A stretch of 64,000 nt of DNA. Source: Escherichia phage EP75. Made by a program: the position numbers and the translations under genes. Numbering within the stretch: the first letter of the stretch is position 1; each line of letters begins with the position of its first letter. The notes under the pieces are model-generated. The model was not told where the DNA came from. It did not search any database and saw only the letters and a list, made by a program, of their open reading frames with translations. The stretch lies in the sequence record MG748547, one strand, 5' to 3'. Positions 607 through 48,855 of this stretch are shown piece by piece.

Positions 607-1224
607 ATGACGATGACAACGTTGAAGGCCATGGCCTTGTCCGTGACCTTTACCATTGCCAGCGGGAGTGTGCACGCTTCCCAAAGTACCACCCAATGTG
701 ATTATGAGTTTTCTGATCAACAACTTTCAACCATGGCCACAGCCTATCACGTGGGCAAACAACAAGACCTTGGTTTCACCCTCGCCGCAATATCATGGAG
801 GGAAAGCCGCGCCGGAGAAGATGTTGTATCCATGCGGAATAACCTGAAATCGGCTAATATGGGGGCATTTCAAAATCGCGTCCAAACCGTCGGGAAACGG
901 GAGGGATGCAAAACACAGAAGTGTTACGCCAATGTTGCGATCAAATTACTGGTCAATCAAGAATATGCTGCCAATGCTGCCCTTGATGAAATGAATTTCT
1001 GGCTAGAATATCATAACCAAAACATCCGCAAATCCCTTTCCTCTTACAATGCTGGGTTCAATCGTAACCAGAAATCCAATTCTTATGCAGCCGACGTCGT
1101 GAAGAAGGCTAAATATCTTCAACGATGTGTGTCTTTCAAAGGCATGGCAATAAACCCAAAGGTCGACCCAGGAGTGATCGCCATGAATAAGCGCACGATT
1201 GAGAAACTCAAGAGGACCAGATAA
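607..1224 (+). CDS. SLT-domain lytic transglycosylase-like protein with N-terminal signal peptide
   Basis: Hydrophobic N-terminus (LKAMALSVTFTIASGSVHA); AISWRESR catalytic Glu-Ser motif and downstream GAFQ resemble the SLT ES...GLMQ signature. Confidence 0.5.
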   Translation: MTMTTLKAMALSVTFTIASGSVHASQSTTQCDYEFSDQQLSTMATAYHVGKQQDLGFTLAAISWRESRAGEDVVSMRNNLKSANMGAFQNRVQTVGKREGCKTQKCYANVAIKLLVNQEYAANAALDEMNFWLEYHNQNIRKSLSSYNAGFNRNQKSNSYAADVVKKAKYLQRCVSFKGMAINPKVDPGVIAMNKRTIEKLKRTR

Positions 1225-1862
1225 TGAATATCACTCCATCTCAGACCGGATATGAACACATAATGGTATTTCTGGCTATTCAGGGCGCGAAGGAAGGGAT
1301 CATTACTTCAGAATATTCCGGTACAATGCGCCTTGCGGATTATGTCGCGCCTGAAGCATTCATCAAGAAATGCATTGACGCTTGGTGCCTTTATGCGCTC
1401 GGCACGTATCCATCACCTCCTGCTGGTGAGTTATTGTTTGCCATACCGACTCCGGCAACTGGTGACACAGACGCGATATTCGCTGATATGCTGTCAAAGG
1501 GTTATCTGACATATGACAGTGCTCACGGCGTGTATGATTTTTCTGCGCTGAATCGTATCTTCGGATTCACCATAACTTCTGAAGCCAATATTCCTGATTA
1601 TGGAATACTAGCATGGGGCGTCGACGGTTTGGGGGCAACATATGCATCTTCGGATGTCGGTCCTGTGTTGATAGACCCAGGGGTGACGATGGAGCAATAC
1701 ATGTCACAATTCCCTCAACATAATGTAACCGGAAGCGATATCATTATTGTCTATCCTGGTTCTAACGCGTTGTCCCGCCTGGTGGACGGCTGGAAGCCTC
1801 AGCTGAAGGACATTGTCTCTGGAATCAGGTTCCATATTCCCGTTGTCAATCCAACACCTTAA
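1224..1862 (+). CDS. hypothetical protein
   Basis: 212-aa ORF; ATGA start/stop overlap with the upstream gene. Confidence 0.45.
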   Translation: MNITPSQTGYEHIMVFLAIQGAKEGIITSEYSGTMRLADYVAPEAFIKKCIDAWCLYALGTYPSPPAGELLFAIPTPATGDTDAIFADMLSKGYLTYDSAHGVYDFSALNRIFGFTITSEANIPDYGILAWGVDGLGATYASSDVGPVLIDPGVTMEQYMSQFPQHNVTGSDIIIVYPGSNALSRLVDGWKPQLKDIVSGIRFHIPVVNPTP

Positions 1863-2320: not shown

Positions 2321-4708
2321 ATGGCCATCCCATCTTTCTTGAACTTTCTTGAAGAGTCTAAACAATTAGACGAAGCGTTTAACTCATCCCCGTATGAATT
2401 GACATTCGGTAAGAAGAACGCTGGTGACATTTTCTTCACATTTGTTGATGAAGACGAAAAAGAATTCCGCATCCAATTTTATACCCCGCAGGGGCTGGGC
2501 AAGAACGTTCGTCAGGTCTTCATAGGCCAGAAACGTGGTTCGACCTATCCAGACGCAATCGGTCGTTTCAAAAACCCAATGCGTGTCATCGCATCCATGA
2601 TCGAAGCAACAAAGCAATTCATGGCGACGCCTTTGGGGAAAACCATTGACGGCTTTGCAATTAACTTCTCCAAGAAAGCATTGGAACGTGGTGTTACCCT
2701 CCTGCCGAAGATCATCCGTCAGTCCGGCCTGAAGCAGAAGCTCAATGTCATGGACCTGACGTATACCCCTATCCCTGATCGTGCATTCGTATGGGTTGTG
2801 CGTAAAGGTAAGGATCCTGCTCAGGTATTCGATGGTCCGAAAATGAAAGGCGTGACTTGGGACGACCCAGACAAAGTCGGCGACGTTCCTGACCAGGCTG
2901 CTCGTGACGCCGCACTACAAGGTGACATAGATGATTTGAGCCAAGCCATAAATGCCGATTCTCGCTGGATTCTGACCAAGGCTGATCATACTCAGCCTAT
3001 GCTGGTCTGGTCTGGTAAAGAACGTGGGCGGACTATTACCGCCAATATCGCACCTCACGCGAATGAACCTGGTGTGTATGCTGGTAGTATCATGAACGAG
3101 AAACGGATCCGCGCTCAATCCCCAGACGCTATTGTACGCCAACTGGGATTACCGCAGATCCCTGTGAATATTCTGAATGATTTCACCAAGCAGTCGTCCA
3201 TCTTCTGGAAAGAGATGACGGGAGATTCTGGAAAAATAGACATGCAGACTTTGCCAAAAACAGGATCTGTGGATGACTTACGAAATCAGGGTTATATTGC
3301 TCGCCTTCTGGGGATTGTAGACACATATGCTCCACAACAGGTCGGTATGTATGCAGGTGAAAAACTAACACGAATCGGCGCGGGCAAATATCGTACTTCG
3401 GGTGGTCTGGACATTCAGGTTTATTTCTGGGGAATTGTCAACGGAAAACTTTCTGTAGAAGTAGTATCAGATTTGTCTGGTCATTACCAACTTATGCTGG
3501 AAGGAGACGTGAAAAACGCCGCTTATGAAATAGTGGGCGCAATCTCCCGTGCAGCCGATTCTCAATTTGCGGGAGAAGTAGAATGCCGTGTGGTTCCTAT
3601 CAATGGTGCCCCATATCCGATTCAAAAAATTTCCCGTTCTCAGGGATATTCTTACGTTGATTGTGGTTCTTTCACATTGAAGATCGCTGACGCTCTGCTG
3701 AATCGGTTTACCTTGGGCAAGGCGGTCAAACTTGATCTGATGAAAGAGTTTCCTCGTACAACATTCAAAGTCCGCTATGATTGGCGTGGAAAAGATACTC
3801 TGTTGGTTCAATCTTCCGACGAGCGTACTATCTTTGGTGAAATCAACACCAATTCCAGTGAAAATGCAGTGATCACTGCAAACATCAAAGTACCAAGCAA
3901 CGCTAAATTTTTTGGTGAAACCGTTCATGGCTTCTCTGTAGCGTGGGATTTCCAGTTCCCTGCTGGTAGCAAGTTGCAAGCCGCAAGATTCGTTACCAAC
4001 GTAACTTACGATTTTGATCGAAATAAAGCCAACATCACCACCATGTTGACTGAAAATGGTCGAAATGTGGTAGACAGCAATGGATATGATATTTCGTTGT
4101 CTGTCAAATCAGTGCAAGATGCATTGGATGAGATTTCTCGACGCCTGAAAGACGCGGCTTCGCAACTGAGCCATCTCAGTTCATCAAACTATAACCCTAA
4201 CAATCTGTTCCTGAATGACATCACTGTCAGTAAATTTGGCGCGATTATGTTCCAAGACAAAGATTTGGCACAGTCCAGGAACCGCACGGCAGTCATTGAT
4301 GCTTTGGCTCGGGCTAAAGATCAGGCTGCTGGAGGTAAGAATGCAGGTGATCTGGCCACCTATGCCGAATCCATTCGTGACAGCGCTCCTAATGGACGAG
4401 ATCTGGATTGGCAGGTATACACAGCCAGTAATGGTACAGTTCTGAATGTTGCTTGGGATATCACTTTCCGTCGCAATACGACCGAAGGAGCATATCGTGA
4501 ATTCAAGGATCAGATCAACCGTGCCAACCAATACCTGCAAACGGTATACAACGACGCGAAATCTAAAGGCTATAATCCTACCGAGCCAAATCTCATGACT
4601 CTTGAACGCGCTCGCCAATCCGACGAATGGGCTATGAGTAATGGTGATAGTGCATACAGTGAATATGAACAATCGCTGGGTGGTAATCTTCAGATTAGTC
4701 TGAAATAA
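2321..4708 (+). CDS. large hypothetical protein (795 aa)
   Basis: Long uninterrupted ORF with AGGAG RBS; no catalytic motif recognised. Confidence 0.6.
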   Translation: MAIPSFLNFLEESKQLDEAFNSSPYELTFGKKNAGDIFFTFVDEDEKEFRIQFYTPQGLGKNVRQVFIGQKRGSTYPDAIGRFKNPMRVIASMIEATKQFMATPLGKTIDGFAINFSKKALERGVTLLPKIIRQSGLKQKLNVMDLTYTPIPDRAFVWVVRKGKDPAQVFDGPKMKGVTWDDPDKVGDVPDQAARDAALQGDIDDLSQAINADSRWILTKADHTQPMLVWSGKERGRTITANIAPHANEPGVYAGSIMNEKRIRAQSPDAIVRQLGLPQIPVNILNDFTKQSSIFWKEMTGDSGKIDMQTLPKTGSVDDLRNQGYIARLLGIVDTYAPQQVGMYAGEKLTRIGAGKYRTSGGLDIQVYFWGIVNGKLSVEVVSDLSGHYQLMLEGDVKNAAYEIVGAISRAADSQFAGEVECRVVPINGAPYPIQKISRSQGYSYVDCGSFTLKIADALLNRFTLGKAVKLDLMKEFPRTTFKVRYDWRGKDTLLVQSSDERTIFGEINTNSSENAVITANIKVPSNAKFFGETVHGFSVAWDFQFPAGSKLQAARFVTNVTYDFDRNKANITTMLTENGRNVVDSNGYDISLSVKSVQDALDEISRRLKDAASQLSHLSSSNYNPNNLFLNDITVSKFGAIMFQDKDLAQSRNRTAVIDALARAKDQAAGGKNAGDLATYAESIRDSAPNGRDLDWQVYTASNGTVLNVAWDITFRRNTTEGAYREFKDQINRANQYLQTVYNDAKSKGYNPTEPNLMTLERARQSDEWAMSNGDSAYSEYEQSLGGNLQISLK

Positions 4709-26876: not shown

Positions 26877-26905
26877 TTTAACTCAGAAGCATTCAATAGA
26901 TGAAG

Positions 26906-26938
26906 GGGCTGCTATAATAGCAGCTCCTTTTGTTTATT
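26906..26938 (+). terminator. intrinsic terminator
   Basis: gctgctat-aat-agcagc palindrome followed by ttttgtttatt. Confidence 0.5.
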
Positions 26939-26948
26939 GGAGCACACC

Positions 26949-27620
26949 ATGTCGTATTCGCTCAAAGGGTTGTTGAAGCGCCCTGTTCATCTGTTTGTAA
27001 AACCACCCGCTGTTGAAGGGGAATATCCGGCACGAGGAGAGTTGTATTACGTTAAAGGCTCCAACGGTAGCGGCAAGTCCACTGTCCCTTCCTATCTGGC
27101 GGAGAATGATCCTCAGGCATATGTCGTGGCCCGCGATAGCAAGATCATGCTCACGGTTTGCCCTTCTTATAACATTATCTGTATCGGTAAATATGACAAG
27201 TCTAAGTCTAAAGGTGTTGATTCCCTGAAAGACACCGAGCAGATGTTGTTCGCCTTGTCCATTGCGGACCAACCAGAATATCTGAAATACGACGTGATAT
27301 TTGAAGGCATCATCCCTTCAACTCTTCTCAGTTCATGGATTCCCCGCCTGACGCGCCCACCACGAGAATTGGTCGTCCTCTTCATGGATACCCCTCTTGA
27401 AACATGTATTGCCCGTGTGAAATCACGCAATGGCGGCGCAGAGTTCAATGAAAGCCTGGTGGTCGAAAAGTGGGAGAGAGTTCATGACCACCGCCAACGG
27501 CATAAAGGCTTGTTCCCTACCGTTCCCGCAGGTATGATGAAGTCTCACGGTCTAACAGTAGACCAAGCTGTAATGGCATTCCTCTGTCGTGATTTTGGGA
27601 GTATTGATTGTGGAAATTAA
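26949..27620 (+). CDS. P-loop kinase, polynucleotide-kinase-like
   Basis: Walker A GSNGSGKST followed by an ARDS segment (compare T4 Pnk GCPGSGKST ... RD); no phosphatase domain. Confidence 0.5.
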   Translation: MSYSLKGLLKRPVHLFVKPPAVEGEYPARGELYYVKGSNGSGKSTVPSYLAENDPQAYVVARDSKIMLTVCPSYNIICIGKYDKSKSKGVDSLKDTEQMLFALSIADQPEYLKYDVIFEGIIPSTLLSSWIPRLTRPPRELVVLFMDTPLETCIARVKSRNGGAEFNESLVVEKWERVHDHRQRHKGLFPTVPAGMMKSHGLTVDQAVMAFLCRDFGSIDCGN

Positions 27621-28656
27621 AGCAATAAACAACAACGACATGCTGAAACAGGCTGTCTTGGCTATCCGTGAGCACGGGATTGAATCTGATCCAGGTAACG
27701 CGGAGATCAACACCGACGGCACCCGCTTCCTCGATGGTGTGACTATTACCGTCAGTGATATTCGCGACCGCTGGCTTTCCGTTGAAGGTCGCAACTCATC
27801 AGCAATAGCAGCCATCGGCGAAACCTTCTGGGTGCTGTCGGGGCGCGATGATGTTCGCTTCCTTTCTCGTGTGTTACCCCGCGCCGCTAACTTCTCCGAT
27901 AATGGCCACACGTGGCGAGCCGCCTATGGACCACGCCTGTATGCCCATGGCCAGCTGGATAGCGTCATCAACCGCCTGCGCAAGAATCCTAACACGCGCC
28001 AGGCATACCTCACCATCTATGATCCGGCTCTAGACTCAGATTTTGGTCTGGCGAAGTTCAGCCTGAGTGGTGAAGCGAAGACCAAAGACATGGTATGCAA
28101 CCTGGCCCTGCTATTCGCTATCGTTGAAGGTCGCTTGAACCTGACAGTCATCAACCGATCGCAGGATGTTCTCTGGGGTATGAGTTCAATCAACTTCATT
28201 GAGTTCTCTATCCTTCAGGAAGTGATTGCTCAGGTGCTGGATGTTGACGTCGGCCAGTACAAGCTCTTCTCTAACAATCTTCATTACTACAACAATGAAA
28301 TGAGCCAGAAGCAGCTCGGTAAGATCACGAAGGAAACCAAAGTGGAAGCCGGGTTCATCAACTCGTTGATCTACTTCAAGAACGTGACCAACCAGAACCA
28401 TATCCGTGATCTATTCACTGGTGTTCTTCATCACTGTGATATTGGTAGCCCGTGGGAAACTGTCGTCGCCCATCTTAAGAAATACGACGCTGATCGCGGC
28501 CTGATACCACAGATGGCATACTGCTTGTACTGCAAACTGAACGACTACAAGATCAACATGGACATGATCCAAGACCACGGGTTGAACGCAGCACTGCAAC
28601 ATTCACCTGTTGACCGCAAGATCATTGACCCCAAGTTCCTGGAAGGTGTGGTATGA
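27589..28656 (+). CDS. thymidylate synthase-family pyrimidine C5-methylase/hydroxymethylase with C-terminal extension
   Basis: TS-fold motifs FWVLSGRDD, RQAYLTIYDP, catalytic Cys in KDMVCNLAL, NRSQDV (R-S-x-D), Asn in SSINF, NLHYY; start may be GTG 27610. Confidence 0.6.
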   Translation: MILGVLIVEIKAINNNDMLKQAVLAIREHGIESDPGNAEINTDGTRFLDGVTITVSDIRDRWLSVEGRNSSAIAAIGETFWVLSGRDDVRFLSRVLPRAANFSDNGHTWRAAYGPRLYAHGQLDSVINRLRKNPNTRQAYLTIYDPALDSDFGLAKFSLSGEAKTKDMVCNLALLFAIVEGRLNLTVINRSQDVLWGMSSINFIEFSILQEVIAQVLDVDVGQYKLFSNNLHYYNNEMSQKQLGKITKETKVEAGFINSLIYFKNVTNQNHIRDLFTGVLHHCDIGSPWETVVAHLKKYDADRGLIPQMAYCLYCKLNDYKINMDMIQDHGLNAALQHSPVDRKIIDPKFLEGVV

Positions 28657-29222
28657 TGTACCCGAACCTTGAATTCTTCACGGGGCGCAAGCGCTCCGGT
28701 AAGGACTTCTGTTTGGAGTCCCTGATCAGTTTTCATCATATTCAGGGTGATATGGATATTCGTCGTCTGTCTTTCTCGGATGAACTACGACGTGTCGCTA
28801 ATTTCATCTATCCATGGCTACCAGCGGAGGTGGAGGATGCTGTGAAGGACGTTCCCTTCGTACACCCTGATAACCCCAAGGGCTTATCCCCGCGCCAAAT
28901 CTGGCTTCATCTGGGCAGCGATACGGGCTTGCGTTATGTACAGCCAGACCTGTTCCTGTCATTCTTTAAACGATATCAACTTCCTTTGGTTGAACAGAAC
29001 CCCAATGTTCATTATATCGTGAGTGATTTGCGTACTCCTCAGGAATATGAATGGGCGCTGAGCACTAAATGTCCTATCACCCGCATTTCAAAGGCGGATC
29101 GTGGTGGTATCATAGAGGATGACATAGAGGCTTTCATTGATAAGATGGAAGTTGATTATGAATTTGTCAATCCGTTTGAAGGTTGGCAACCGTTCGTCAA
29201 ATTTTATAGGGATCGGAAATGA
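28653..29222 (+). CDS. 1: deoxynucleoside monophosphate kinase (T4 gp1-like)
   Basis: N-terminal GRKRSGKD P-loop variant as recalled for T4 gp1; 189 aa. Confidence 0.55.
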   Translation: MMYPNLEFFTGRKRSGKDFCLESLISFHHIQGDMDIRRLSFSDELRRVANFIYPWLPAEVEDAVKDVPFVHPDNPKGLSPRQIWLHLGSDTGLRYVQPDLFLSFFKRYQLPLVEQNPNVHYIVSDLRTPQEYEWALSTKCPITRISKADRGGIIEDDIEAFIDKMEVDYEFVNPFEGWQPFVKFYRDRK

Positions 29223-29773
29223 TCACAGCAGAGCATATTAAAAGTCTGCTCGAACTTCAAAAGGCCACCAACGTGGCCTACTTTGGGGAAGAGTGGAAGA
29301 ATGTATGGAGTCATAACGCCGTCGTCAACTCCATATATCGTGAGTGGGCAGAGTTTCTTGATGAAACGACTGCTGACTGGAAGGTTTATGGAAACGACAT
29401 CGGGTTTAACCATGCGAACGCAGTCTATGAACTGGTGGACGTGGTTCACTTCATGCTGTGCTTCGTCCTGTTGGACCGTACCAAAGGCGAGATCGAAGAA
29501 GAATTCGAAATCCTCAGTGGTCGCGAATTCACCTTATTTGCTTCGATTGCTGTCGGACATCGAGGTGTGACGTATCGCCTTGGGCAATTCATGAACGATC
29601 CTTGCGTCGAGACTCTCATGTTCTTCCTGTCGGATGCTTGCTTTTACATGGAGATTGACATTGAGACCTACATGCTGGCACACAAACGCAAAAATGATCG
29701 CAATCGGCTGCGTGCTGCTGGTGGCGCGAACTACGATAAGTCCGCAGAAACCCCTCTGACCCTGGAGTTCTAA
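29219..29773 (+). CDS. all-alpha NTP pyrophosphatase (MazG/dimeric dUTPase family; T4 gp56-like)
   Basis: EWAEFLDE and YELVDVVHF acidic motifs spaced as in the E-x2-E ... E-x2-D signature. Confidence 0.45.
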   Translation: MITAEHIKSLLELQKATNVAYFGEEWKNVWSHNAVVNSIYREWAEFLDETTADWKVYGNDIGFNHANAVYELVDVVHFMLCFVLLDRTKGEIEEEFEILSGREFTLFASIAVGHRGVTYRLGQFMNDPCVETLMFFLSDACFYMEIDIETYMLAHKRKNDRNRLRAAGGANYDKSAETPLTLEF

Positions 29774-30303
29774 TGTTTACAGTTGTCGTATCATATTATG
29801 CGGAACATGCCCCGCACATGGCAGAGAACTTCGCTGAGTTTATTAAACCAGGCGGTCATGTCGTTATTGCGACCAATTTCAAGAAAGAGCCAGATGGTGC
29901 GGCTACTGTAACACAACACATTACAACCAAAGAGCCGGAAACACTTTTTAAACGCATTGAGGATTTTGCTTTTGGCGGGGAAGAAATTCCAGAGTCATTA
30001 CAGCATATCTATTTTGAAGATGCGATATATTATATTCATGCTATACCAAAGGATGTTACGACCGAACAACTAATGTATGTTTTGAATATTGCGTTAAATT
30101 TATCGTGCGTCAACAGGGCACAGCATAATCGTTTGCGCAATATGTATTTAACAGAACGCGGGGGTTCCGAAATTAACGATGAAAAACTCCCGTCAATAAT
30201 GGCGATTCACGAAGCAATCAATATATTGTCCAAGAAAGTCTTGGGCACCGATTTATTAATTACGATCAACAAGCAAGAGGAAACGAAATGGCCGATTCAT
30301 TGA
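29773..30303 (+). CDS. hypothetical protein
   Basis: 176-aa ORF between the nucleotide cluster and uvsX. Confidence 0.45.
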   Translation: MFTVVVSYYAEHAPHMAENFAEFIKPGGHVVIATNFKKEPDGAATVTQHITTKEPETLFKRIEDFAFGGEEIPESLQHIYFEDAIYYIHAIPKDVTTEQLMYVLNIALNLSCVNRAQHNRLRNMYLTERGGSEINDEKLPSIMAIHEAINILSKKVLGTDLLITINKQEETKWPIH

Positions 30304-31373
30304 TGGCTCGCATGCTCAAGACAGCAAAGAAACTGGACCCGAATGCCGAAGTGCTGTCAAAGACCGATGCGCTGAAGCCTGACATTATTTGCAGTACGGG
30401 TATTCCTATTCTGAATTTGGCCTGGTCCGGTCGTATTGATGGTGGTCTGATATCAGGCATCAAACAGTTGGTGGGGGATTCTCGTACATTCAAAACCATG
30501 TTTGGGCTGGTGGATGTTAAGGCTTACATGGATAAGTTTCCTGATGCAATTTGTATCTTCGCGGATTCAGAAGGCGGTGCGAATGAAAACTACTGGACAT
30601 CTATGGGTATTGACATGGACCGTGTCTTGTATCTGCCGATTGAAAACGTTGAAAAGACGAAGATCAAGCTGACACAGCTTCTGAACGATGCACAGAAAGG
30701 TGACAAGATCATCGTATTCATTGACTCAATCAGCCAGTTGCCGTCTACCAAAGAAGTTGATGATGCCATCGCGGGCAAAGACACACAAGATATGACCCGC
30801 GCTCGCGCTCTCAATAGTTTTTGGCGTGTTATCACCCCGTTGGTCACTGAAAAGAAATTCGTTTTGGTATGGATCAACTCGTACTATGATGAAATCGGGA
30901 ACCAATACGCCGAGCCGAACATCAAAGGCGGTAAACAGGGGTTCCTGTCTTCTAACCAATTGTGGTTCATCACGCGTGCTCAAGTTAAAGAAGACAAAGA
31001 CCTTTTGGGATGGCAGTTTACAGTCAACATTATGAAAGGCCGCTTTGTCCGTGAAAAAGCCAAGTTCCCTGTCACTGTGTTGTATGAAGGCGGTATTGAC
31101 CGTTGGTCCGGTATGTTAGAAATTGCGCGCATGCTGGGGTATGTGGATTTGGTGAGTGGTTCTTGGTATCAACGCACTGCCAAAGGCGGGTTTGATCCAG
31201 AAAAAGAAAAGAAATATCGTAAGGCAGAGCTGGGGGATGACTTCTGGTATCCGCTGCTGGAAAACCCAGACTTTGTTGACGATGTGAACAACATGTTCGG
31301 TATCTCTCAGAGTTCGGTTATGCCTGCAGATATGCTGGAGCGCCTCGATAATGTCATCAAAACAACCGAGTAA
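30288..31373 (+). CDS. uvsX: RecA-like recombinase UvsX
   Basis: Degenerate Walker A (GDSRTFKT), Walker B-like VFIDSIS, size 361 aa, position next to the helicase gene. Confidence 0.6.
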   Translation: MADSLMARMLKTAKKLDPNAEVLSKTDALKPDIICSTGIPILNLAWSGRIDGGLISGIKQLVGDSRTFKTMFGLVDVKAYMDKFPDAICIFADSEGGANENYWTSMGIDMDRVLYLPIENVEKTKIKLTQLLNDAQKGDKIIVFIDSISQLPSTKEVDDAIAGKDTQDMTRARALNSFWRVITPLVTEKKFVLVWINSYYDEIGNQYAEPNIKGGKQGFLSSNQLWFITRAQVKEDKDLLGWQFTVNIMKGRFVREKAKFPVTVLYEGGIDRWSGMLEIARMLGYVDLVSGSWYQRTAKGGFDPEKEKKYRKAELGDDFWYPLLENPDFVDDVNNMFGISQSSVMPADMLERLDNVIKTTE

Positions 31374-31680
31374 TATTGCAGGGGGAGGAGACTCCCCCGT
31401 TAATTACAAAATCATCGACCCTGGTTCTGATCAGTTAGCAATAATCGAAATAACGGAAGGCAAATTCCGTGGCGTTCAATTTCGTATAGGGAAAGTGGGT
31501 GTCCATTTAGATAATGGAGAGCCTCGGTTATCCTTTACAACAGATATATTGAAGAAACCATGGCGTTTGTTATTTGTTAATTTGAAAGAAAATGACTTGT
31601 TCACTGTGGTGTCTGGGGATATCTTAGTTGATCTGATACAGCAAAATGCTCAGGATTACAACAAAATTTTGGTGGGGTAG
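31351..31680 (+). CDS. hypothetical protein (occupies the position of T4 gene 40)
   Basis: 109-aa ORF between uvsX and the helicase gene; synteny only. Confidence 0.35.
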   Translation: MSSKQPSNIAGGGDSPVNYKIIDPGSDQLAIIEITEGKFRGVQFRIGKVGVHLDNGEPRLSFTTDILKKPWRLLFVNLKENDLFTVVSGDILVDLIQQNAQDYNKILVG

Positions 31681-31686
31681 TTGCCA

Positions 31687-33939: not shown

Positions 33940-35133
33940 ATGAAAGCCAAGACCTTCAGCATCCCAATTGATAACATTGGTCGTGTCAAGGAACGTCTTG
34001 CCAAACTTGAAAGAACGGCAAACCGCCTGAAACTCGAGTTCCCTCTTGTTGAGTTCAGTGAACCATACAAAACACAACACCGCTATTCTATCACTGGCGA
34101 AAAATTTTATCGTTGGTGGCAAGATTGTACTCTAACTGGTGAAGGCATCGACCGCCCCGTTTCTTATGGTGGGTGGAGTATCATTGGACAATTCAACCAC
34201 CAGTATCCAAAAGTCATTCTGAATAAACTGTCAGATGACATCCACCAAAATTTCGTTCAAAGATTTGAAGCTGAAAACGTATCTTGGTGCGAGCATTGCA
34301 ACAAATCTGTGCGTCGTCATAACACATATGTCGTTCGTAACGAACAATCTGGCGCACAGATGCTCGTGGGTAGCAGCTGTATGCATCATTATGTCCCGCA
34401 TCAGAAATCCCTTGATGCGGTTATGTCTTATTACATGTCTATTCACGAAATGTTTACCCCCGATGAAGATGACCCAGAAGGGATTTATCGGGTTAATGAA
34501 CCAGATTATGTTGACACAGAAGGATATTTGCGTAAATGCTTTCAGGTTTTGCTGTCCGGCCTGAGCATTAAAAGTGATGATTTTGGTCGAGTTCTTGGTC
34601 ATATCTCTAGCGGTACTCGTCCAGAGAAAGGTTCTGACATTGATATATTCTATAACAAGGCTGTTAAAGCCCGTGAAGATGCTCAATCAGAAATGTACCA
34701 TATGATGCTTTTCATCTCATCGTTGTCTGAAAATAACGATTTCAACGTCCGGCTGAAACGTATGTGCGAACCTGGTTATCACCTTGTTAAAGACTCAACA
34801 ACAGTTCGTTGGGGAGCAGCAAAGTATTATGATTATATCCACACCCCCCGCCAAACGCGCACTGTATCAAATTGGGTTGGTGAAGTTGGTGAAATGTTAG
34901 AAGCACAGGTCAAATTTGAAGCAAGGATTTTCCTGTATTCATCTGATTATGGTGACACGTATCTGTATACTTTCAAAACCAAGGAAGGCAATACCATTAC
35001 ATGGAAGACTTCCTATATGGAAACCGAATTCCTGGAAGGTGATATGATCATTCGTGGTCGCGTCAAAGAATTGACCGAATTCAAAGGTGTTAAACAAACT
35101 CAGATCACAAGGGCAAAACTGAGGAAATTATGA
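33940..35133 (+). CDS. hypothetical protein with Cys/His cluster
   Basis: 397 aa; WCEHCNK ... SSCMHHY suggests metal binding. Confidence 0.5.
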   Translation: MKAKTFSIPIDNIGRVKERLAKLERTANRLKLEFPLVEFSEPYKTQHRYSITGEKFYRWWQDCTLTGEGIDRPVSYGGWSIIGQFNHQYPKVILNKLSDDIHQNFVQRFEAENVSWCEHCNKSVRRHNTYVVRNEQSGAQMLVGSSCMHHYVPHQKSLDAVMSYYMSIHEMFTPDEDDPEGIYRVNEPDYVDTEGYLRKCFQVLLSGLSIKSDDFGRVLGHISSGTRPEKGSDIDIFYNKAVKAREDAQSEMYHMMLFISSLSENNDFNVRLKRMCEPGYHLVKDSTTVRWGAAKYYDYIHTPRQTRTVSNWVGEVGEMLEAQVKFEARIFLYSSDYGDTYLYTFKTKEGNTITWKTSYMETEFLEGDMIIRGRVKELTEFKGVKQTQITRAKLRKL

Positions 35134-38434: not shown

Positions 38435-40375
38435 TTACCAATCCCAGAGAATGCGCCCTGTATCAGTACGGTTGGACGGCTCCAGTTGTGAACTGTTGAA
38501 GTTGTTCGTCGTACTGACTTTCTTCGAGTTGTCCACATTTTGTTGTACAGGCATTACCACACTGGCTGGCGGGTTAGCATAGGCGGATTTAACTTCTTCG
38601 ATGTTATTGGCTGCTCTTCCTTGAACCGGATAAGCCCCGCCCAGAGTACCTCCCCCGATCCCAGCATATGCATCTTTCAATTGAGAAGTGCGATCTGTTA
38701 CGTTCACAGCATCCGAAGAAACCCCAGAAGGCATTGGAGTCAGCGTGCTGATATCTGCATTAGGTTGTGCTGGCGATTGACTGTTCGGTGGTACAGAGGC
38801 ATTCTCAGGAGCCTTATCGTCTTGGCTTATCAGCATAGACTGTCTTGCTTCCACCATCTTATTCCTGGCTGCTTCACCACCCAACGCATCGGGGATAATG
38901 CTGACAAACTTATCTACGATATCAAACATCGCATTGGTGATAGCATTCAACATGTTGAAGAAAGGTTTCTTCACATTTTCAGCAAATCCTTTCTTCATGT
39001 CTTCAACGACTTTGTTTGCAGCCGCCATGCCGTCATCTATCAGGCCAGTTATTCCACCCGTTACCCAATCAACCAATTTTATCAATTGGCCTTGCAAGTT
39101 ATCTGCAAGTTTACCAGGTATTTCGGTCAGTGATGTACTCTTCCCGATACCCGCAAACAAATCGTTGGTGACCCAATCAACAATCGAGTTCAACCAACGC
39201 ACGGGCGCTTCGGTCATTTTCAGCACTTGTTCACGGAACGCCTTTCCAAACCCAGCATTGTTCCATCCGAATATTTCAGCAACCCAATCGGCGAGATCCC
39301 CGAAACTACCGACCAGCTCTGTTATCCCTGCCTGAACCCGATCAACGATCGATACTTGCGCTTTACCAAGGATTTCTTTAGCATTAAAGAACCCTTTACC
39401 GAATTCAAATACAGATGTTATCAGAGCCAAAGGTCCGACTCGAAGCATCTTGGTTGCTGCTTTCAGAGGCGCAAGCAACCCGCCGATCCCAGCACCAAAC
39501 CCCATGAATAATTTAATGAAGCCACCAACAAGTTTTAATGGGGACATCAGGAGTTTTAACGCGCCCAGTCCAAGGAGTGCCCCCAGCGCCGCGCCTAACC
39601 CAGAAGATTGACCATCTTGTTTAGGCTCAGACGGAGGGATAGAACCAGCCTCTGGGTTGTTCTTGTTTTCCTTACCTTCTTCGCCACGACGGAATTTCTC
39701 TTCTTCTCTATATTTTTGATCACTTTCATAGATACGTGTCAGAGTATCATTAAGATCTTCGTTCATGTATCCCAATTTGTCATCAATGCTGTCGAGGCGG
39801 GTAACAGTTTCGTTACTGGCATCTTTATTGAAATCCAGCGTGTCCTTATGTGTTTGAAGCATTATGTCAGTCAGGTTTACGATCTCCCCTCCGACCAACG
39901 CCAGCTTATCCTTTAATCCATCAAGGCGTTCAAGACTATCTTCGTTGGCCGCACCCAATTGATCTGATATCATGTCAAGATATTCAACTGACATGTCGTC
40001 AACCGGACCATTCGCCGCTTCACCAAATTTTTCGATCTTGGTGGCGATACGCATCAGTTCTTCATTGCCATCCTTTGTTAGACTGACGGTGTCTTTCATC
40101 CAAGTGCTGTAATCCCTTGTGAAAATAGGACTGACGCGGACAAACCCACCAACAATATCATTCACCGATGGGAATTTAATTGGCGGGACTTTCTGCTCCT
40201 GATTAGACGCCTGGCGTGTCTTCAGAGATTGCAGTTGTTTGTTGACATCGGCGAGCTGTTTATTCGTCTCGGATTGGGCGCGCAATTGCTTGCGCTCCAT
40301 CATTTCTTTTTTGATTTTATCCAAAACCTTGACGATGTCTTGCTGCCCTGGTGTCGGTTGATTGTTATCTGCCAT
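38435..40375 (-). CDS. tail tape-measure/baseplate hub protein (gp29-like)
   Basis: 646 aa; N-terminal coiled-coil-like region, central Gly-rich hydrophobic segments (GLGAALGALLGLGALKLL ... GFGAGIGGLLAPL). Confidence 0.45.
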   Translation of the reverse strand: MADNNQPTPGQQDIVKVLDKIKKEMMERKQLRAQSETNKQLADVNKQLQSLKTRQASNQEQKVPPIKFPSVNDIVGGFVRVSPIFTRDYSTWMKDTVSLTKDGNEELMRIATKIEKFGEAANGPVDDMSVEYLDMISDQLGAANEDSLERLDGLKDKLALVGGEIVNLTDIMLQTHKDTLDFNKDASNETVTRLDSIDDKLGYMNEDLNDTLTRIYESDQKYREEEKFRRGEEGKENKNNPEAGSIPPSEPKQDGQSSGLGAALGALLGLGALKLLMSPLKLVGGFIKLFMGFGAGIGGLLAPLKAATKMLRVGPLALITSVFEFGKGFFNAKEILGKAQVSIVDRVQAGITELVGSFGDLADWVAEIFGWNNAGFGKAFREQVLKMTEAPVRWLNSIVDWVTNDLFAGIGKSTSLTEIPGKLADNLQGQLIKLVDWVTGGITGLIDDGMAAANKVVEDMKKGFAENVKKPFFNMLNAITNAMFDIVDKFVSIIPDALGGEAARNKMVEARQSMLISQDDKAPENASVPPNSQSPAQPNADISTLTPMPSGVSSDAVNVTDRTSQLKDAYAGIGGGTLGGAYPVQGRAANNIEEVKSAYANPPASVVMPVQQNVDNSKKVSTTNNFNSSQLEPSNRTDTGRILWDW

Positions 40376-45342: not shown

Positions 45343-45864
45343 TTAATTCCTTACTTTGTCTGGGTTGGATAAGATTTGTTCGTATCCGACTTCGCCTTGA
45401 TCGTCGAAAACATGCTGAAGAATCGCCATATCGTCTACCATCCGATAAACTTCAATTCCAGCGTTCATCAATTTTTTGATTCCATCCATGATACGATATG
45501 GCTCTTGATAATATACTTTATCGATCTTGCCGTTGTCGATGATCTTCTGAGTGCAATCAGGGCATGGGCTATGTGTCACAAACATAACCAACCCTGTGAA
45601 ATCATCTGCATTTTCGGGGATACGCATTAGAGCATTTTCCTCCGCATGAATGACACACGGGTTTGTAACAATTTGCCCGTGTTGTTCCATCTCACAAACA
45701 TTCGGCATGCCAGGAGGCGTTCCGTTCCATCCGATAGCCACAGGCTGATCAGTTTCAGGGTTTACGATAACACAACCGACTTGCAGACGCCGAGCATAAC
45801 TGGTTACACCATATGCTGCAGCTGATCGCATATGGGCGAACATCATTCGTGGTTTGATAGCCAT
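45343..45864 (-). CDS. cd: dCMP deaminase
   Basis: Zinc-binding cytidine/dCMP deaminase motifs HAEENAL and PCPDC; 173 aa. Confidence 0.75.
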   Translation of the reverse strand: MAIKPRMMFAHMRSAAAYGVTSYARRLQVGCVIVNPETDQPVAIGWNGTPPGMPNVCEMEQHGQIVTNPCVIHAEENALMRIPENADDFTGLVMFVTHSPCPDCTQKIIDNGKIDKVYYQEPYRIMDGIKKLMNAGIEVYRMVDDMAILQHVFDDQGEVGYEQILSNPDKVRN

Positions 45865-48192: not shown

Positions 48193-48855
48193 CTATGATA
48201 ACTCATGGCGATGTCGAACACACGCAGGACAATCACAATTCTTTTTCAAAATTGGCAATTCACACCATGTCATTAAGTCATGTATTGGGGACATGTGATG
48301 ATAGAACCAAGATTTCTTGAGACTAATCAATGGATATAAAATTTCAATAGATCTTTCCCCGTCTCTGGTCATCATGTTGTATCCTTCAATAACTTTATTA
48401 AAGGCGGGTATCCAGTGTATTGCGTCATCGCCGTTAACATATGCCAAGATATACGTGGAAGGCAAGCCACTGCCTTTAAATTGCGTGTTTAATAACCATA
48501 TCGGGGCTTGTGCTAAACAAGCGCGAAAACCACCGTTCGGGACGTTGATGCTACTGATAGGTTCTTGATGATGTGTCCAACGATACATGAGAAGTGGGGC
48601 ATTTTTATTAATCCAGTTGTATATTTTATTCCTCGCCCAATTTTCGCGTTTAGATTTAAATTTATTATTTTCGAGGTGGCAATACACAGTATGAACTGAA
48701 TATCCTTTCGATAGCAACCAAATCAACATGTATGTGCTATCCACCCCACCAGACCAGAACAACGTCACTTCTTGATTATTCTGCGGCAATGGAGCATCCC
48801 CTTGAAGAACACGGTATACAAAATCACAATCAGATATTGAGACAACAATTTCCAT
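48193..48855 (-). CDS. PP-loop ATP pyrophosphatase, QueC-like
   Basis: N-terminal SGGVDST (SGGxDS); C-terminal cysteine cluster C-x8-C-x-C-PAC resembling the QueC zinc site. Confidence 0.5.
   Translation of the reverse strand: MEIVVSISDCDFVYRVLQGDAPLPQNNQEVTLFWSGGVDSTYMLIWLLSKGYSVHTVYCHLENNKFKSKRENWARNKIYNWINKNAPLLMYRWTHHQEPISSINVPNGGFRACLAQAPIWLLNTQFKGSGLPSTYILAYVNGDDAIHWIPAFNKVIEGYNMMTRDGERSIEILYPLISLKKSWFYHHMSPIHDLMTWCELPILKKNCDCPACVRHRHELS

Follow-up and report, generated by a model that had tools for sequence, protein, structure and literature searches.

The window analysed here, a stretch of 64 000 nucleotides from Escherichia phage EP75 (MG748547), carries a gene of the thymidylate synthase (TS) family next to a gene for a 5-hydroxymethyl-dU (5-hmdU) DNA kinase, and the locus raises the question of which nucleotide the enzyme makes. 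Nucleotide identity amounts to 96.8% with Salmonella phage Marshall and to about 85% with some 200 further Ackermannviridae, which makes the window part of a Kuttervirus (ViI-like phage) genome. The gene very probably encodes a dUMP hydroxymethylase with a classical TS fold, responsible for the first, pre-replicative step of the ViI-like hypermodification of thymidine. This class of enzyme has already been described in ViI-like phages (Kutter 2011; Lee 2018; Lee 2021). A literature search for a published enzyme assay or structure of an Ackermannviridae dUMP hydroxymethylase, either this protein or its orthologues, found none.

An earlier, sequence-only reading had placed the gene at 27589–28656. 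An open reading frame (ORF) of 355 aa is indeed present there on the plus strand in the six-frame listing; the GTG that opens this longest ORF, at 27589, is however probably unused. Translation more likely begins at the GTG at 27610, which gives a protein of 348 aa. This choice follows from the GGGAG motif upstream of the second GTG (Table 1), from the N-termini and lengths of the homologues and from the annotated length of the Marshall orthologue (1047 nt). All of the approximately 60 homologues begin with MEI(K/F)A.NNND, and those of the close clade measure 342–352 aa. Residue numbers given below refer to the 348-aa protein; numbering on the 355-aa ORF is obtained by adding 7. The gene overlaps the end of the upstream kinase gene, stop codon included, by 11 nt and the start of the dNMP kinase gene by 4 nt. 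Direct translation places KTKDMVCNLA at 28078–28107 and NRSQDVLWGMSSINFIE at 28153–28203, and all the motifs cited in the earlier reading are there.

Table 1. Features of the hydroxymethylase locus and of a functionally related gene in the window.
Feature	Coordinates	Strand	Remarks
Terminator-like hairpin	26902..26930	+	13-bp stem followed by a T-rich tail; terminator annotated at the same place in Marshall, Magnus and KWBSE43-6
5-hydroxymethyl-dU DNA kinase (5-HMUDK), orthologue of ViI gp67	26949..27620	+	PF18748, 9.2e-114; 94% identical to Vi01_061c = YP_004327432
Probable dUMP hydroxymethylase CDS	27610..28656	+	348 aa + stop; GTG at 27610; RBS GGGAG at 27597-27601; PF00303, 3.8e-16; PHROG 3676, 8.5e-182
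Catalytic TS-fold core	27610..28329	+	aa 1-240
Active-site motif D160-M-V-C163-N164	28087..28101	+	catalytic Cys = C146; Asp at the L143 position; Asn at the H147 position
R183-S184-Q-D186 ... G190 ... N195	28156..28194	+	phosphate/deoxyribose-type Arg/Ser; Asp169 equivalent; predicted uracil-specifying Asn177 equivalent
C-terminal, mostly helical domain	28330..28653	+	aa 241-348; five predicted helices; takes the place of the C-terminal strands and lid tail of ThyA
dNMP kinase	28653..29222	+	PHROG 139, 7.4e-48; annotated dnk in ViI; would convert 5-hmdUMP to 5-hmdUDP
All-alpha dimeric-type dUTPase/NTP pyrophosphohydrolase	29219..29773	+	PF08761, 1e-07; PHROG 173, 2.7e-39
dCMP deaminase, putative dUMP supplier	45343..45864	-	PF00383, 5.2e-17; Marshall orthologue annotated dCMP deaminase

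The profile matches indicate that membership of the TS family is not a chance result: ORF residues 74–242 match PF00303 with 59.5 bits, where the Pfam gathering score is 24.3, and the match to PHROG 3676 covers the full length of the protein, tail included. The protein has the TS fold. Its active site was mapped by two independent alignments, which concur: one by HMMER against PDB chains of Escherichia coli TS, the other by MAFFT with ThyA and T4 gp42. The reference sequences of ThyA and gp42 were 100% identical to PDB chains 1aob_A and 1b49_A, respectively, whereas those of SPO1 gene 29 and PaMx11 gp51 were taken from X60728 and from the GenBank record of the latter phage. In the MAFFT alignment, E58, Y94 and R126 of ThyA correspond to E71, Y106 and R130, C146 and H147 to C163 and N164, R166/S167 and D169 to R183/S184 and D186, G173 and N177 to G190 and N195, and H207 and Y209 to H225 and Y227. 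Thus, the catalytic Cys that had been proposed in KDMVCNLAL is confirmed as Cys163 by both alignments, and the R-S-x-D motif sought in NRSQDV is R183-S184-Q185-D186 (R166-S167-C168-D169 of ThyA). The catalytic set shared with ThyA and T4 gp42, namely C163, E71, Y106, R183, D186, H225 and Y227, is complete and invariant among the homologues. An alignment of 29 sequences that reaches down to 26% identity shows no variation at the motif residues Cys, Arg, Ser, Asp, Gly, Asn, His and Tyr, and both D160 and C163 are found in 29 of 29 homologues.

The base recognized by the enzyme can be predicted from the residue at the ThyA N177 position, which is Asn in TS and in dUMP hydroxymethylases and Asp in the cytosine enzymes (PMC5175136). 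It is D179 in T4 gp42 and D186 in MilA, the CMP 5-hydroxymethylase of mildiomycin biosynthesis (PDB 5jnh/5b6d). The earlier prediction of a dUMP-type rather than a dCMP-type enzyme had been based on an Asn at this position, and it is supported by Asn195, which proved invariant in the entire set of 29 homologues; aligned with ThyA, T4 gp42 and the SPO1 enzyme, the protein has Asn there and not the Asp that would have spoken against the prediction. Very little credence is accordingly given to a hydroxymethylase of the cytosine type, with dCMP or CMP as its substrate, like T4 gp42 or MilA. Its Asp, which is shared by MilA, BcmA and T4 gp42 (PMC5175136), is absent from every homologue; R130 and S184 are of the deoxyribose type, whereas MilA has Lys133 and Ala176; T4 gp42 gave no match in BLASTP; and hmdC does not stand in for cytosine in the DNA of the related phage CBA120 (Kutter 2011, PMC3184105). 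Counting against a dUMP enzyme, the solved structure closest to the protein by both sequence and fold is that of a CMP hydroxymethylase. At approximately 20% identity, this bacterial enzyme of secondary metabolism differs from the phage protein by the Asp at the N177 position and by the Lys/Ala pair replacing Arg/Ser, which correspond to a substrate with cytosine and ribose, and it also carries Thr, not Asn, after the catalytic Cys.

A uracil-type Asn fits a genuine TS equally well, and the sequence-only reading had left the choice between TS and dUMP hydroxymethylase undecided. Most GenBank/RefSeq records adopt the former, that is, conversion of dUMP to dTMP with hydride transfer from tetrahydrofolate (THF); PF00303 and the PHROG family are both labelled thymidylate synthase and the orthologues are so annotated. 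Much of the T in ViI DNA is moreover unmodified thymidine: about 60% of the T positions stay thymidine, a figure attributed to Lee 2018. The signature residues, the equivalog cut-offs, the neighbouring 5-hmdU DNA kinase and the literature nevertheless favour a dUMP hydroxymethylase, and we regard a true TS as quite improbable. All seven NCBIfam TS equivalog models scored the protein below their cut-offs, with 20–56 bits against 108–427 (56.5 bits at best, for a model that requires 327), so that each threshold was missed by 50–400 bits. Similarity to dUMP hydroxymethylases far exceeds that to ThyA, as BLASTP gave E-values of 5e-42 for PaMx11 gp51, 6e-31 for SPO1 gp29 and 2e-14 for ThyA.

The residues that set hydroxymethylases apart point in the same direction. 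Twelve ThyA residues lie within 6 Å of C5 of dUMP according to a recent list, and among them L143 tracks the methyl or hydroxymethyl nature of the product, being acidic in hydroxymethylases (PMC13326640, 2026 NAR). In the phage protein Asp160 takes the place of L143, W80 is missing, and Phe and Asn stand where ThyA has W83 and H147. SPO1 gp29 and PaMx11 gp51 show each of these states, and both also agree with the protein at the C146, R166/S167, D169 and N177 positions. The first two features, together with a helical domain in place of the C-terminal lid of ThyA, are at odds with a bona fide TS. T4 gp42 shares the Asp at the L143 position. The replacement of the His that follows the catalytic Cys, noticed earlier, is verified as Asn164 and is a trait of the clade.

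Data on the phages themselves agree with a dUMP hydroxymethylase and disagree with a TS. CBA120 incorporates no 3H-thymidine, and in a phylogeny the ‘TS’ of CBA120, ViI and AG3 groups with the dUMP hydroxymethylases of SPO1, phiW-14 and YuA (Kutter 2011, PMC3184105); the modified base in the DNA of ViI and CBA120 derives from 5-hmdU (PMC3184105, PMC5889632). In ViI DNA, this base was identified as 5-NeOmdU, and the gene adjoining 5-HMUDK was labelled dUMP hydroxymethyltransferase (Fig. 2 of Lee 2018, PMC5889632). A tblastn search of Marshall, which covered sequences similar to this protein, detected one homologous locus only, and consequently no second TS-family source of 5-hmdUMP is apparent. 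Sequence relationships, the signature residues, the gene neighbourhood and the base found in virion DNA together make 5-hmdUMP a very well-supported predicted product.

Another activity of the TS fold is hydroxylation at C5, as by the flavin-dependent 5-hydroxy-dCMP synthases; such an enzyme, or one with an undescribed C5 product, has hardly any chance of being encoded here. The mark of 5-hydroxy-dCMP synthases is D169N (PMC13326640), known from the RB69 gp48 type, whereas Asp186 is retained and invariant in the phage family, and Asn rather than Asp occupies the N177 position. Furthermore, the base of ViI keeps at C5 the methylene carbon that CH2-THF would supply, and the adjoining kinase works on 5-hydroxymethyl-dU.

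Among phage enzymes of the presumed activity, SPO1 gp29 is the biochemically characterized reference. Wilhelm & Rueger reportedly identified it in 1992 as the deoxyuridylate hydroxymethylase of this Bacillus phage. The twelve first-shell positions match between the two proteins except for Q185, which is Asn in SPO1, and both have K-D-x-x-C-N, N-R-S-x-D, G-x4-N, R-Q at the positions of ThyA residues 126 and 127 and the W80 deletion. SPO1 gp29 is likewise long (383 aa), but the identity of 34% concerns the core only (aa 58–241), and the tails are without detectable sequence similarity. The best pairwise match among the references was gp51 of Pseudomonas phage PaMx11, a dUMP hydroxymethylase of the M6/YuA type (35.5% identity, 5e-42). 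This protein also has 348 aa and is clustered with a 5-HMUDK; it differs in its tail, unrelated by sequence search, and in the other final hypermodification of its phage. The closest known kind is, however, the dUMP hydroxymethyltransferase of ViI-like phages themselves, represented by CBA120 orf073 (Kutter 2011; Lee 2018). The ViI orthologue, Vi01_060c (‘thyA’, orf00066), is 77% identical over 341 aa and has 346 aa against 348. Its neighbours occur in the same order as in the window: 5-HMUDK, dNMP kinase, dUTPase, an ACT-like protein and UvsX.

The genomic context is that of a compact nucleotide-modification operon. The hairpin upstream of the kinase gene ends the preceding transcription unit, so that the kinase–hydroxymethylase operon begins directly after it. 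The order 5-hmdU DNA kinase, TS homologue, dNMP kinase and dimeric-type dUTPase is the same in ViI, SFP10, Dickeya phage Kamild, Klebsiella phage Magnus, KWBSE43-6 and Serratia phage IME250, and the operon is thereby conserved across three genera, Kuttervirus, Limestonevirus and Taipeivirus. The downstream dNMP kinase and dUTPase genes are joined by 4-nt start/stop overlaps. The upstream kinase is the orthologue of an assayed enzyme, ViI gp67, which phosphorylates 5-hmdU in DNA (PMC8989533), and the dNMP kinase has been linked to hmdUMP (Kutter 2011, PMC3184105). The dUTPase-family enzyme is presumed to be a dUTPase/dTTPase that clears competing nucleotides, a role deduced from Kutter 2011. 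Ten hypothetical ORFs of the window were scanned with Pfam, and none matched the other hypermodification genes (aGPT-Pplase, PLP decarboxylase, second kinase). In ViI, these three genes lie far from the hydroxymethylase locus.

By analogy with TS, T4 dCH and SPO1 gp29, we propose that Cys163 of a homodimeric enzyme would attack C6 of dUMP, whereupon C5 would attack the N5-iminium form of 5,10-methylene-THF and the departure of THF would leave an exocyclic methylene. Water, rather than a hydride from THF, would then add to the methylene, yielding 5-hmdUMP and THF. Admission or activation of this water could result from Asp160 in place of the hydrophobic L143, from the missing W80 and from the replacement of the ThyA C-terminal lid. 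Asn195 would select uracil, and R130 and S184 would suit a 2'-deoxy substrate. The adjacent dNMP kinase and the NDP kinase of the host would convert the product to 5-hmdUTP for the phage polymerase, while the composition of the nucleotide pool would be influenced by the dCMP deaminase and by the dUTPase-family enzyme encoded next door. Once the DNA has been replicated, 5-hmdU in it would be phosphorylated by the neighbouring 5-HMUDK, leading via O-serinyl-T to 5-NeOmdU. The steps from 5-hmdU onward have been reconstituted (Lee 2021, PMC8989533). The route through O-serinyl-T has been shown in the literature for ViI; its genes lie outside the window.

The enzyme would thus provide the non-canonical nucleotide for the 5-NeOmdU of ViI-like phages. 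This base blocks many restriction enzymes, and ViI-like phages find use in typing, biocontrol and therapy; none of this is new to the literature. Practical value lies rather in annotation hygiene, as the labels in most database records are misleading: ‘thymidylate synthase’ for the hydroxymethylase and ‘terminase small subunit’ for the 5-hmdU DNA kinase. To the published picture our analysis makes small additions concerning the constraint acting on the MilA-like extension, the mosaic origin of the allele and the loss of one phosphate ligand in the Ackermannviridae clade.

The extension is the most variable part of the protein. The protein had been described earlier as longer than typical TS or T4 gp42, with a C-terminal extension of about 100 aa, and this holds: it has 348 aa against 264 for ThyA and 246 for gp42, both of which are 85–100 aa shorter, and gp42 is devoid of the C-terminal domain. 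However, neither the extension nor the Cys-Asn pair is an oddity of this protein, since both occur in SPO1 gp29 and PaMx11 gp51 as well. After the HxY motif, 121 residues follow here, 55 in ThyA, about 28 in gp42, 157 in SPO1 gp29 and 132 in PaMx11 gp51; no retrieved homologue has fewer than 110, and a long tail is therefore normal for the clade. An AF2 model derived from the alignment of 29 sequences (pLDDT 92.8, pTM 0.93) contains five tail helices at pLDDT 92–98. In fold comparison, MilA was the best match, with its C-terminal domain included (300 residues aligned, as against at most 243 for short TS), and BFVD entries for further long TS homologues of phages matched over the full length, e.g. 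that of Aeromonas phage phiA8-29 (TMq 0.88). The model thus predicts that the five-helix tail is a MilA-like accessory domain. The C-terminal domain of MilA has been described (PMC5175136), and the extension is an already known feature of MilA-type long TS homologues. When the tails of the Ackermannviridae clade were compared by hhalign with those of SPO1, PaMx11 and further long homologues, no significant similarity emerged (E 0.61), so the case for homology of the extension across clades is a structural one.

Within the Ackermannviridae, the tail diverges much faster than the core. It is 52% identical to that of ViI, compared with 87% for the core, and positions conserved at 90% or more make up about 13% of the tail against 53% of the core. 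By the Nei–Gojobori method, dN/dS in unsaturated pairs is 0.125–0.13 for the tail and 0.029 for the core. Constraint on the tail is consequently relaxed, yet clearly purifying; it fits a structural or scaffolding domain and speaks against an arms-race surface. Diversifying selection on the domain was rejected on the basis of the same unsaturated comparisons. A simple swap between two types of domain was rejected too, since tail identities scatter between 35% and 60% among cores that are 85–97% identical, without discrete classes. The domain probably lies at a distance from the catalytic centre, and a structural role is the most likely one. It might instead be a docking module for phage partners (the dNMP kinase, a dNTP-synthesizing complex or the replisome) that channels 5-hmdUMP into DNA, which we consider unlikely. 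If it were, the rapid divergence of the tail and the exchange of alleles among Ackermannviridae would reflect co-evolution with these partners or with a host factor directed against the domain.

Such exchange is visible at the locus itself. Relative to ViI, dS is 0.28 in the flanking kinase gene and 0.20 in the dNMP kinase gene, but 1.9 in the hydroxymethylase core and 1.0 in the dUTPase gene. These unequal values across neighbouring genes show that the locus is mosaic, the hydroxymethylase allele being old in comparison with its flanks (0.2–0.28). Its nearest alleles are those of Marshall (99.7%), SFP10 and, across subfamilies, the Dickeya Limestonevirus phages (91–94%).

The Arg residues that bind the phosphate are partly conserved. 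R130 and R183 (R126 and R166 of ThyA) are present and R127 is replaced by Gln, as in SPO1, whereas PaMx11 gp51 keeps the Arg. A fourth ligand, R21 of ThyA, is Arg in SPO1 gp29 and PaMx11 gp51, Lys in gp42 and Gly29 here, a point against the assignment as a dUMP hydroxymethylase. Gly29 adjoins an insertion of 4–5 aa specific to the Ackermannviridae-type clade.

The locus spanning positions 26949-29773 is mosaic relative to phage ViI, the source of the assayed 5-hmdU DNA kinase gp67. Measured against ViI across this interval, the 5-hmdU DNA kinase and dNMP kinase genes show dS values of 0.28 and 0.20, respectively, but dS reaches 1.9 in the core (aa 1-240) of the predicted dUMP hydroxymethylase and 1.0 in the dUTPase. 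The hydroxymethylase allele shares 91-94% amino acid identity with those of SFP10 and of Dickeya phages of the genus Limestonevirus, versus 77% with that of ViI. ViI belongs to the same genus as the phage studied here, but its allele is more distant than those of SFP10 and the Dickeya phages.

The same enzyme departs from characterized relatives in the region of the phosphate site. In E. coli ThyA, R21 is a phosphate-binding arginine. The equivalent arginine is kept in the dUMP hydroxymethylases SPO1 gp29 and PaMx11 gp51, whereas the enzyme of EP75 carries Gly29 at this position (348-aa numbering; aa 23-42 correspond to 27676-27735). Gly29 is adjoined by an insertion of 4-5 residues, PGNAEINTDGTR, which is confined to the Ackermannviridae-type clade, and the confidence of the structural model is lower around both (aa 23-42, pLDDT about 78).

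Features of the window and their family matches
Feature	Position	Strand	Match
DUF7270 protein	1224-1862	+	PF23934, full-length, 1.3e-119
5-hmdU DNA kinase gene	26949-27620	+	PF18748, 9e-114; 94% identity to assayed ViI gp67
Dimeric-type dUTPase / NTP pyrophosphohydrolase	29219-29773	+	
176-aa protein	29773-30303	+	'Phage ACT-like domain' PF24021, full-length, 1.3e-88
220-aa protein	48193-48855	-	Weak Pfam matches: QueC 4e-05, ThiI 3e-04 (PP-loop ATPase)

The dUTPase is unusually divergent among close relatives, with 66-67% amino acid identity to its ViI and SFP10 counterparts and the highest dN/dS of the operon (0.18-0.31). Between it and UvsX, within the same translationally coupled gene string, lies the gene of the ACT-like protein. 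With a small-molecule-binding fold of this type beside nucleotide-pool enzymes, the protein could have a regulatory role.

RefSeq annotates the 5-hmdU DNA kinase gene as 'terminase small subunit' in the entries for Marshall, ViI, SFP10, Magnus and other phages, and PHROG 800 carries the same label. This looks like a propagated mis-annotation.

In the related Salmonella phage Marshall, a hypothetical gene and an HNH homing endonuclease (Marshall_152/153) separate UvsX from the DnaB-like helicase. In the window the corresponding interval measures only some 308 nt (31373-31681); judging from ORF coordinates alone, it therefore seems to lack the homing endonuclease.

Pfam returned no matches for several large ORFs neighbouring the DUF7270 gene: 2321-4708 (795 aa), 33940-35133 (397 aa) and 38435-40375 (minus strand, 646 aa). 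The Marshall orthologue of the 220-aa protein is annotated as 'QueC-like queuosine biosynthesis', and such an enzyme is odd in a phage with a known DNA modification on thymine.
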